Shown here: positions 17,883 to 18,845 of the stretch, piece by piece
Position numbering within the stretch: the first letter of the stretch is position 1
How the letters are laid out: every line of letters begins with the position of its first letter
Source: Patescibacteria group bacterium
GTDB taxonomy: Bacteria > Patescibacteriota > Dojkabacteria > J137
Assembly (NCBI GenBank): GCA_016861265.1
Contig: BOLA01000001.1
Coordinates: forward strand, 75,569-139,568
Direction of reading: 5' to 3'
DNA length: 64,000 bases
Position numbers and translations under genes: made by a program
Notes under the pieces: model-generated
The model's input: the letters and a program-made list of their open reading frames with translations, nothing else
Database searches by the model: none
Told to the model about the DNA's origin: nothing

Positions 17883-18074
17883 CGCAAGATGTCTTTCTTT
17901 AGTATCCGTTGAAAGTCCTTTAGGTACTGCCCAAGATTTTAGGACACCCTCTACTTCAATCCTAAAATCATAGTGTAGTCTTGTAGCATTGTGTTTTTGA
18001 ATTACAAAAATTGGTAACTTACTATTAGAAGATTCGACTTTTCCTTCAGGTTCTTTAGTGTTATCAAAGTTTCT
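17883..18074 (-). other. In-frame 5' extension encoding the conserved LigD phosphoesterase N-terminus ([11 protein letters not shown]...[31 protein letters not shown]) with no ATG/GTG/TTG start codon. It is immediately preceded by the Ku TAA stop
   Basis: Manual translation of the minus strand. The 64 sense codons between the Ku stop (18075-18077) and the LigD Met-Met contain the catalytic His/Asp/Arg block (QKH..RLHYDFR). Confidence 0.75.
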
Positions 18075-18845
18075 TTATGCTTCAATTTCAGCAAGGCTTT
18101 TCTGCAGTTGTTCCATAACATCACTTACATCGGTAACTTTTGGCGCTGACTTTGGTGTTTTTATTGGTTTTTTATGAATCTTGGCATCAATTATTTTCTT
18201 AAGTCCATTTAAATAATCATCTTGATAGTCAGATGGGTCAAACTGCTCGGCCATTCCTTCAATTAACTTCTGTGCCATATCAACTTCTTTATCGGATAAT
18301 TTAATATTTTTTGGCAGGTTTAATTTTGAAGTTGGCTTTATTTCGGATTCGTATCGTAACTGATTAAGGATTAGCATATTACCTTCAGGTTTAATAATAC
18401 ACAAATGCTCTCTGTTTCTTAAGACAAATTCCGCAACCCCTACTTTATTTGATTTCTTAAGCGCTTTAATTAATAACAAATATGTTTTTTCTGCACCCTT
18501 AGCAGGTTCTAAATAATATGGCTTATCAAAGAATATCGGATCAATATCTTCTTTATCTACAAAACATGATATTTCAATACTATTACTTCTGTGTATATCT
18601 ACCTTATCAAAGTCCTCATCTGTTAATACTACATAATCTCCCTTCTGGTATTCATACCCTTTAACTACTTCCTTCCATGGAACCTCTTTTCCTGTTTCAG
18701 AATCTATTCGTGCATATCTTATTGGCGACTTATCCTTTTTGCTGAGCATATCTAGATCTAGTTGCACACTTTGTGTTGCTGTATATAAGTTTACAGGAAT
18801 ATATATTAATCCAAAGCTTATGCCACCGGTCCACATTGCTCTCAT
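18075..18845 (-). CDS. ku: Ku protein (bacterial NHEJ DNA-end-binding protein)
   Basis: Hallmark N-terminus MRAMWTGGISFGLIYIPVNLYTAT. Ku core of 256 aa. Immediately upstream of, and in frame with, LigD. Confidence 0.9.
   Translation of the reverse strand: MRAMWTGGISFGLIYIPVNLYTATQSVQLDLDMLSKKDKSPIRYARIDSETGKEVPWKEVVKGYEYQKGDYVVLTDEDFDKVDIHRSNSIEISCFVDKEDIDPIFFDKPYYLEPAKGAEKTYLLLIKALKKSNKVGVAEFVLRNREHLCIIKPEGNMLILNQLRYESEIKPTSKLNLPKNIKLSDKEVDMAQKLIEGMAEQFDPSDYQDDYLNGLKKIIDAKIHKKPIKTPKSAPKVTDVSDVMEQLQKSLAEIEA

Follow-up and report, generated by a model that had tools for sequence, protein, structure and literature searches.

The bacterial Ku and LigD operon for non-homologous end joining (NHEJ), as found in Mycobacterium tuberculosis, Pseudomonas aeruginosa and Bacillus subtilis (ykoV-ykoU), consists of a Ku gene followed by a gene for an ATP-dependent NHEJ ligase. 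The 3'-phosphoesterase (PE) domain of P. aeruginosa LigD (PaePE) requires H42, H48, D50, R52, H84 and Y88 for both of its activities, and its residues 1-31 are disordered and matter for the monoesterase activity only (PMC3300020). Strands β1-β3 of its barrel correspond to residues 35-63 (PMC3300020). LigD proteins of about 500-540 amino acids that contain PE and ligase domains and no polymerase domain are encoded in MAGs of Saccharimonadales, Nitrospirae and Thermodesulfovibrionales, and are annotated as 'non-homologous end-joining DNA ligase'. These variants begin with an ATG and the peptide MxLxxYxxKR[DN]F.

The locus analysed here lies in a 64,000-nucleotide stretch of DNA, the whole of which is called the window. 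It is like the known operons in that Ku is followed by an ATP-dependent NHEJ ligase, and its close relatives have the stop/start overlap of a coupled operon. It is unlike them in that the junction between the two genes has suffered a deletion, LigD has no start codon and only the PE and ligase modules are present. The domain order of LigD in the window is the same as that of the polymerase-less PE-ligase variants, but the window copy has lost the first nine codons, which contain the ATG. The locus is an ordinary two-gene bacterial Ku-LigD NHEJ operon that carries a strain-level start-loss deletion.

Gene layout and domain content

Ku is encoded on the minus strand at 18075..18845 as a protein of 256 amino acids. 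It is complete, matching TIGR02772 at 301.6 bits against a cut-off of 150 with residues 2-251 on profile positions 1-259 of 259, and it also matches PF02735 (E = 1.3e-48). The protein ends in ...QKSLAEIEA and is followed by a TAA (18077-18075) that was created at the deletion junction. The same frame resumes at 18074 and is open to the stop at 16596-16598, giving 492 codons of LigD. Minus-strand translation thus bore out an earlier reading made from the letters alone, which had placed the Ku TAA at 18075-18077 with LigD codons next in the same frame. The ORF list and a codon scan also agreed with its statement that no ATG, GTG or TTG occurs in the 64 codons (17883..18074, minus strand) before the ATG at 17882. 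That reading had counted two ATT codons in this segment; there are actually three in frame, at 18011, 18002 and 17960, and ATT is the only near-cognate codon type in frame there. The first two of them, at 18000..18011, are hypothetical starts in an AT-rich and weakly folded context. Two consecutive ATG codons (17882 and 17879, at 17877..17882) are the first in frame, and are the fallback start of gene callers for a product of 427 or 428 amino acids. From this point to its TAA stop, the remaining LigD ORF (16596..17882, minus strand) has no frameshift or internal stop. An Ada-like gene with an AraC-type HTH and an O6-methylguanine-DNA methyltransferase DNA-binding domain is divergent to Ku on the plus strand (19243..20070). 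This neighbour is conserved, being present also at the orthologous loci L002, L003, L008 and L093.

The segment that follows the Ku stop had been taken for the N-terminal half of the LigD 3'-phosphoesterase, and this identification held: post-stop residues 1-156 (17607..18074, minus strand; PF13298) matched TIGR02777 at 198.2 bits against a cut-off of 144. The match covered profile positions 8-155 of 156, and its beginning at position 8 fits a missing PE N-terminus. The NHEJ ATP-dependent ligase domain with its adenylation and OB parts (16608..17492, minus strand; PF01068 and PF04679) is intact, has the KLDG motif and scored 293.2 bits with TIGR02779 against a cut-off of 227.75. The order of Pfam families in LigD is LigD_N (PF13298), DNA_ligase_A_M and DNA_ligase_A_C, and PF21686 is absent. 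A Pfam scan matched no polymerase family in this LigD, and the three-domain LigD models stayed below their cut-offs (TIGR02776, 265.8 vs 373.2; NF004628, 492.7 vs 895). The protein therefore consists of phosphoesterase and ligase only, as had been proposed. Among 20 other ORFs of the window scanned with Pfam no gene for a polymerase domain was found; two giant ORFs and the ORF at 25752-30257 lie outside that scan.

Alignment to the P. aeruginosa PE structure (PDB 2LJ6) located the catalytic residues within the PE domain. The QKH, LHYDFR and EDHPxxY motifs are all conserved, and the complete catalytic set of H42, H48, D50, R52, H84 and Y88 (PaePE numbering) is encoded in the window. D15 is replaced by N in the window and in two orthologs. 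The start-less 64 codons, which comprise the LigD N-terminal peptide and strands β1-β3 of the phosphoesterase, contain the equivalents of R14, E21, Q40, H42, H48, D50 and R52. The methionine at 17882 corresponds to PaePE residue 79 in strand β4. A product begun there would thus be without H42, H48, D50 and R52 and without strands β1-β3, more than three of the eight strands, and the alignment supports the earlier claim that a LigD begun at the first ATG loses the active-site block of the PE domain. By a start-codon test the PE domain is not translatable, as no start lies upstream of its N-terminal peptide.

The 38-bp deletion and its relatives

The junction was compared with seven orthologous loci (L001, L002, L003, L008, L011, L012 and L093) whose LigD proteins are 68-98% identical to that of the window. 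In 7/7 loci the stop codon of Ku and the ATG of LigD share 4 nt (ATGA) or 1 nt (TAATG), and LigD starts with MKL[DE]xYNKKR[DN]F. Ku of the orthologs has 260-264 amino acids and ends in ...EIEASRKSK*. The six closest LigD proteins from the first search (P0001-P0006) are 94-68% identical to the window protein and 500-503 amino acids long, and are nine residues longer at the N-terminus than the open frame of the window. A closer full-length LigD, P0122, belongs to the 90% cluster of P0001 and is encoded at L093. This locus is the nearest intact relative, with 97.8% DNA identity over the operon (49 mismatches in 2250 nt). When GTDB species representatives were searched, LigD of a Saccharibacteria MAG came out best, at 54% identity. 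Taken with a GC content of 36%, the giant ORFs and a 1.1-Mb contig, this distance makes a Patescibacteria/CPR host probable. In the intact relatives LigD lies in the -1 frame relative to Ku. In the ancestral state, as these loci indicate, the two genes were separate and the stop of one overlapped the start of the other.

DNA alignment of the junction showed a single 38-column gap in the window against L001-L003, and nothing else differs at the junction. The bases missing relative to L093 are CTAGAAAATCAAAATGAAGCTAGACGAATACAATAAAA, and no base of either flank differs from L093. The lost segment encodes the last five codons of Ku (SRKSK) and its stop as well as the LigD ATG and the next eight codons; in translation, SRKSK-stop of Ku and MKLDEYNK of LigD are gone, and LigD of the window is short of its first nine codons compared with the orthologs. 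Since 38 is 2 modulo 3 and LigD was in the -1 frame, the deletion brought the frames of Ku and LigD into register. The junction lies between T 18077 and A 18076 (18076..18077, minus strand), and the new sequence GCA-T|AA-AGA creates the TAA. The comparison with orthologs had been suggested as a check on the sequence-only reading; a genuine LigD start codon is indeed present in the relatives, but the lesion is a 38-bp deletion and not the point change that had been anticipated. The in-frame arrangement is a traceable deletion product and not a chance pattern. A clean 38-bp deletion is the cause of the in-frame layout. Very probably the locus carries an ordinary and recent strain-level gene lesion, and represents neither recoding nor a fusion of genes.

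Microhomology at the deletion junction is 0 bp, and a microhomology-mediated deletion is therefore unsupported. An imperfect AGAAA repeat nearby predicts an open fusion, GCATCTAGAAAC (GCA TCT AGA AAC), and two further substitutions would be needed to reach TAA by this route. When 31 placements of a 38-nt deletion were tried (+/-15 nt), only the observed one gave a stop, and the others gave an open Ku-LigD fusion. The TAA at the junction thus arose by luck, or else a free Ku C-terminus was selected for.

The deletion allele was also found in other assemblies. Exact look-ups of the window Ku and of the 427-aa LigD retrieved five independently assembled runs from three accession series, and the identical junction is present in the Logan assemblies SRR25083410, SRR13860396, DRR258780, DRR258781 and DRR258782. 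The 427-aa fallback LigD call is also recorded at NCBI, for a contig of up to 1.114 Mb. Two haplotypes could be distinguished by 4 differing sites in 5.2 kb, haplotype A in the window and the DRR runs and haplotype B in the two SRR runs, and one SRR contig has a strongly divergent patch further upstream. The three loci L093-L095 are intact and belong to the same species cluster, at about 97-98% identity, as the deletion allele. The deletion is a circulating allele that is polymorphic within the species cluster. In an exact-pattern scan of JGI metagenomes, the right flank of the junction gave 0 matches. An error of sequencing or assembly in one record, as the source of the 38-bp gap or of the TAA, has nothing specific in its favour beyond the general expectation that applies to any broken gene in a genome from a metagenome. 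The recurrence of the same junction in five separately assembled runs, among them a second haplotype marked by 4 nearby SNPs and by a divergent flank, rules such an error out and leaves it with next to no probability. A fusion gene broken by a nonsense mutation or by a sequencing error had also been considered. It is contradicted by the two-gene arrangement at 7/7 loci, by the TAA allele in five runs and by the absence of Ku-LigD fusions from the database searches described below.

The rest of the LigD sequence shows no decay. Compared with L001, the start-less 64 codons have 15 synonymous and 2 non-synonymous differences (dN/dS 0.027). When changes were polarised by outgroups, 2 synonymous and 0 non-synonymous changes in these codons fell on the window lineage since the split from L093. 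For the whole LigD, the same lineage has about 8 synonymous and 1 non-synonymous changes, with 1 more non-synonymous change unpolarised, and no stops or indels. The low dN/dS appears mostly to predate the deletion, and it says nothing on selection afterwards. LigD is invariant within the deletion clade (0 differences), where the haplotypes diverge by about 0.08%. As the rest of the LigD ORF is undamaged and the allele is polymorphic in the species, the deletion is recent. The absence of further damage in the 1.5-kb ORF also fits continued use of LigD; a divergence of about 0.08% gives no power either way.

Predicted consequences for translation of LigD

Ancestral LigD had no upstream leader of its own and was presumably translated by coupling to Ku. 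One blunt deletion of 38 bp removed the Ku tail and stop, the LigD ATG and the next eight LigD codons. Ku would still be made, short of the five-residue basic tail (SRKSK) that is kept in all orthologs. Ribosomes that terminate at the TAA would meet no start for 195 nt, and coupled initiation of LigD would be lost. Full-length LigD is most likely no longer made, as judged from the gene sequence. At most, a weakly initiated product from the ATG at 17882 might appear, consisting of a PE stub predicted to be unfoldable and an intact ligase domain.

The context of the candidate starts was compared with that of other genes. No Shine-Dalgarno motif was found at the genes of the window. Genuine starts in the window (n=19) have an upstream GC of 0.19 +/- 0.08 and a folding energy of -4.2 +/- 1.8 kcal/mol over -30..+30. 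With an upstream GC of 0.40 and -10.9 kcal/mol, the ATG at 17882 is outside the range of these 19 starts and is similar to internal ATGs (n=114; GC 0.36, -7.9 kcal/mol). Its appearance is that of an internal codon, not of a start. This bears on the proposal that a truncated LigD from 17882 or 17879 carries a dead PE stub but still functions in NHEJ ligation, so that only the healing of 3' ends is lost. The ligase domain scores above its curated cut-off and is intact, LigD ligase domains retain activity in vitro when isolated, and the 427-aa form is annotated by gene callers at NCBI and in Logan. However, the start context matches internal ATGs and is outside the genuine range, the start lies 195 nt past the Ku stop where the ancestral coupling is lost, and the stub, with 4.5 of the 8 strands of the barrel, would probably misfold (2LJ6 alignment; PMC3300020). 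We consider a functional ligase of this kind unlikely. It would be compatible with the deletion reading and differs from it just in the predicted consequence.

Among non-canonical codons, only the ATTs at 18011 and 18002 could conceivably serve as starts and still leave the PE core in the product. Upstream GC (0.30 and 0.23) and folding energies (-3.9 and -4.8 kcal/mol) at these two codons are like those of genuine starts. If LigD were still made from AUU at either position, the product would be a PE core without the disordered N-peptide, joined to the ligase. Several observations favour this. The contexts are AT-rich and weakly folded, Shine-Dalgarno motifs are not used in this genome, and the LigD ORF is undamaged. 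In PaePE the N-terminal stretch 1-31 is disordered and matters for the monoesterase activity only (PMC3300020), and the product would resemble natural PE proteins without the N-peptide; in the solved PE protein 5DMP the chain begins 3 residues ahead of the position that corresponds to ATT 18011. On the other hand, AUU initiates translation very poorly in those bacteria that have been examined for it. Both codons lie inside strand β1 (residues 36 and 39), so the barrel would be clipped even so, and the isoleucines are conserved in all orthologs as domain residues, with nothing to mark them as starts. Nor does the undamaged ORF serve as evidence, given how young the deletion is. Initiation at AUU, one of the options in the earlier reading, is improbable.

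A third possibility is that the TAA is read through to give a functional Ku-LigD fusion of 749 amino acids, either by programmed recoding or by a suppressor tRNA. The two ORFs are in one frame with one stop between them, the other deletion placements within +/-15 nt yield a fusion, and such a fusion is sterically conceivable. Against this, the layout occurs in 0/7 orthologous loci and stems from the recent deletion; the in-frame stop is confined to the deletion allele. TAA is the dominant genuine stop, ending 17/25 ORFs in the window. Reassignment of the stop codon was rejected on the same count, and because translation table 11 leaves the giant ORFs open. No stable RNA structure was detected around or downstream of the TAA (MFE -16.9 vs shuffle mean -19.0, z = +0.63). 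The window has no suppressor tRNA, and its tRNAs are tRNA-Gln(UUG) and tRNA-Glu(CUC) only. In a search of 5.8 billion proteins with the readthrough product, the best 120 matches were LigD proteins and none combined PF02735 with LigD domains, and full phmmer with the fused query gave no Ku-LigD fusion in the best 150 of 1.84 billion representatives. These best 150 matches were all of the LigD type, aligned from about query residue 250 onward with match residues 2-10, and none had its best-scoring stretch in Ku. Programmed readthrough or termination-reinitiation, which had been put forward for this locus, is thus not supported: the layout is found in no relative and is a by-product of the deletion, no RNA structure accompanies it, and its stop is the commonest one. 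We regard a functional readthrough fusion as highly improbable.

It is also conceivable that the allele was remodelled, with selection keeping the one stop-giving placement out of 31 and with LigD made from AUU 18011 or 18002, perhaps together with some readthrough fusion. If this were true, a start-less gene would here have been rescued by initiation at a codon other than AUG, in a bacterium without Shine-Dalgarno motifs. We think this distinctly improbable, and favour a recent deletion that most likely ended the production of full-length LigD.

Comparison with known systems

A deletion lesion has direct consequences for annotation. The 427-aa 'LigD' annotation starts at an internal Met and describes a protein that is incapable of phosphoesterase catalysis. 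The locus should instead be annotated as a slightly shortened Ku gene followed by a LigD that is disrupted or has lost its start, and a working NHEJ pathway in this organism should be inferred with caution. Two ORFs in one frame with a single stop between them can stem from a deletion over an ATGA junction, and close relatives should be compared before recoding is claimed. The locus is a further example of a loss of function that is polymorphic between strains of a small-genome bacterium, and opens no new question.

Programmed readthrough and termination-reinitiation systems are like this locus only superficially, in having two ORFs in one frame with one stop between them. They are unlike it because here the layout is not conserved, a stimulatory structure and a favourable nearby start codon are both lacking, and the ATGA coupling signal has been deleted. 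Pseudogene polymorphisms that arise by start loss or by deletion at a gene junction are the closer parallel: there is one small deletion, it is confined to a shallow clade and absent from a relative with 97.8% identity, and there is no secondary decay. The locus differs from other start-loss pseudogenes in that the deletion also joined the two frames and made a TAA by chance, so that it can be mistaken for a recoding site or for a fusion gene that has been broken.

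The deletion junction and its strains

Comparison of window positions 18076-18077 with positions 2881-2918 of L093, the nearest intact relative, showed a blunt deletion junction that has no microhomology (0 bp). Speculatively, the deletion could be an end-joining-type event within the end-joining operon itself. Only one of 31 neighbouring deletion placements, the observed one, creates a stop codon, and the others result in an open Ku-LigD fusion. A free Ku C-terminus may, again speculatively, have been favoured by selection. Sample SRR13860396 contains both the deletion allele (L005) and a sister species, 69% identical, in which the Ku/LigD junction is intact (L011). 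Therefore, related lineages co-occur in one community.

Only 4 mismatches separate the window from L004, the contig of the other deletion-bearing strain (SRR25083410), in the 5.2 kb containing Ku-LigD, and 58 of 62 mismatches between them lie at 20488-21843. This cluster overlaps an ORF for a Ser/Thr/Asn-rich membrane protein (20248-21177) and the ORF at 21263-21880, and it resembles either a tract of recombination or a surface gene that is hypervariable.

Translation signals

A search of the whole window, covering 25 ORF starts, found no Shine-Dalgarno-like motifs upstream of genes. With a mean GC of only 0.19, the gene leaders are extremely rich in A and T, and the 25 ORFs end in TAA (17), TAG (7) or TGA (1).

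Giant ORFs, and gene order around LigD

The ORF list includes a giant minus-strand ORF of 6418 aa (31365-50621). Another, of 4672 aa (2507-16525, minus strand), contains on translation several internal repeats of about 450 aa. L004 carries an identical copy of this gene, and its Pfam matches start with a response-regulator receiver domain, after which come Laminin_G_3 and Big_1. The product is a giant repetitive protein, apparently of surface type, and a receiver domain heading such a protein is unusual.

Ada-like, Ku, LigD and OGG constitute a conserved DNA-repair neighbourhood. In L008 (3001-6560), a 72%-identical ortholog locus from a relative, Obg and the OGG glycosylase directly follow LigD, whereas LigD and Obg/OGG (448-2505) of the window are separated by the 14-kb giant gene (2507-16525). 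This difference in gene order points to an insertion or expansion in an otherwise conserved neighbourhood.
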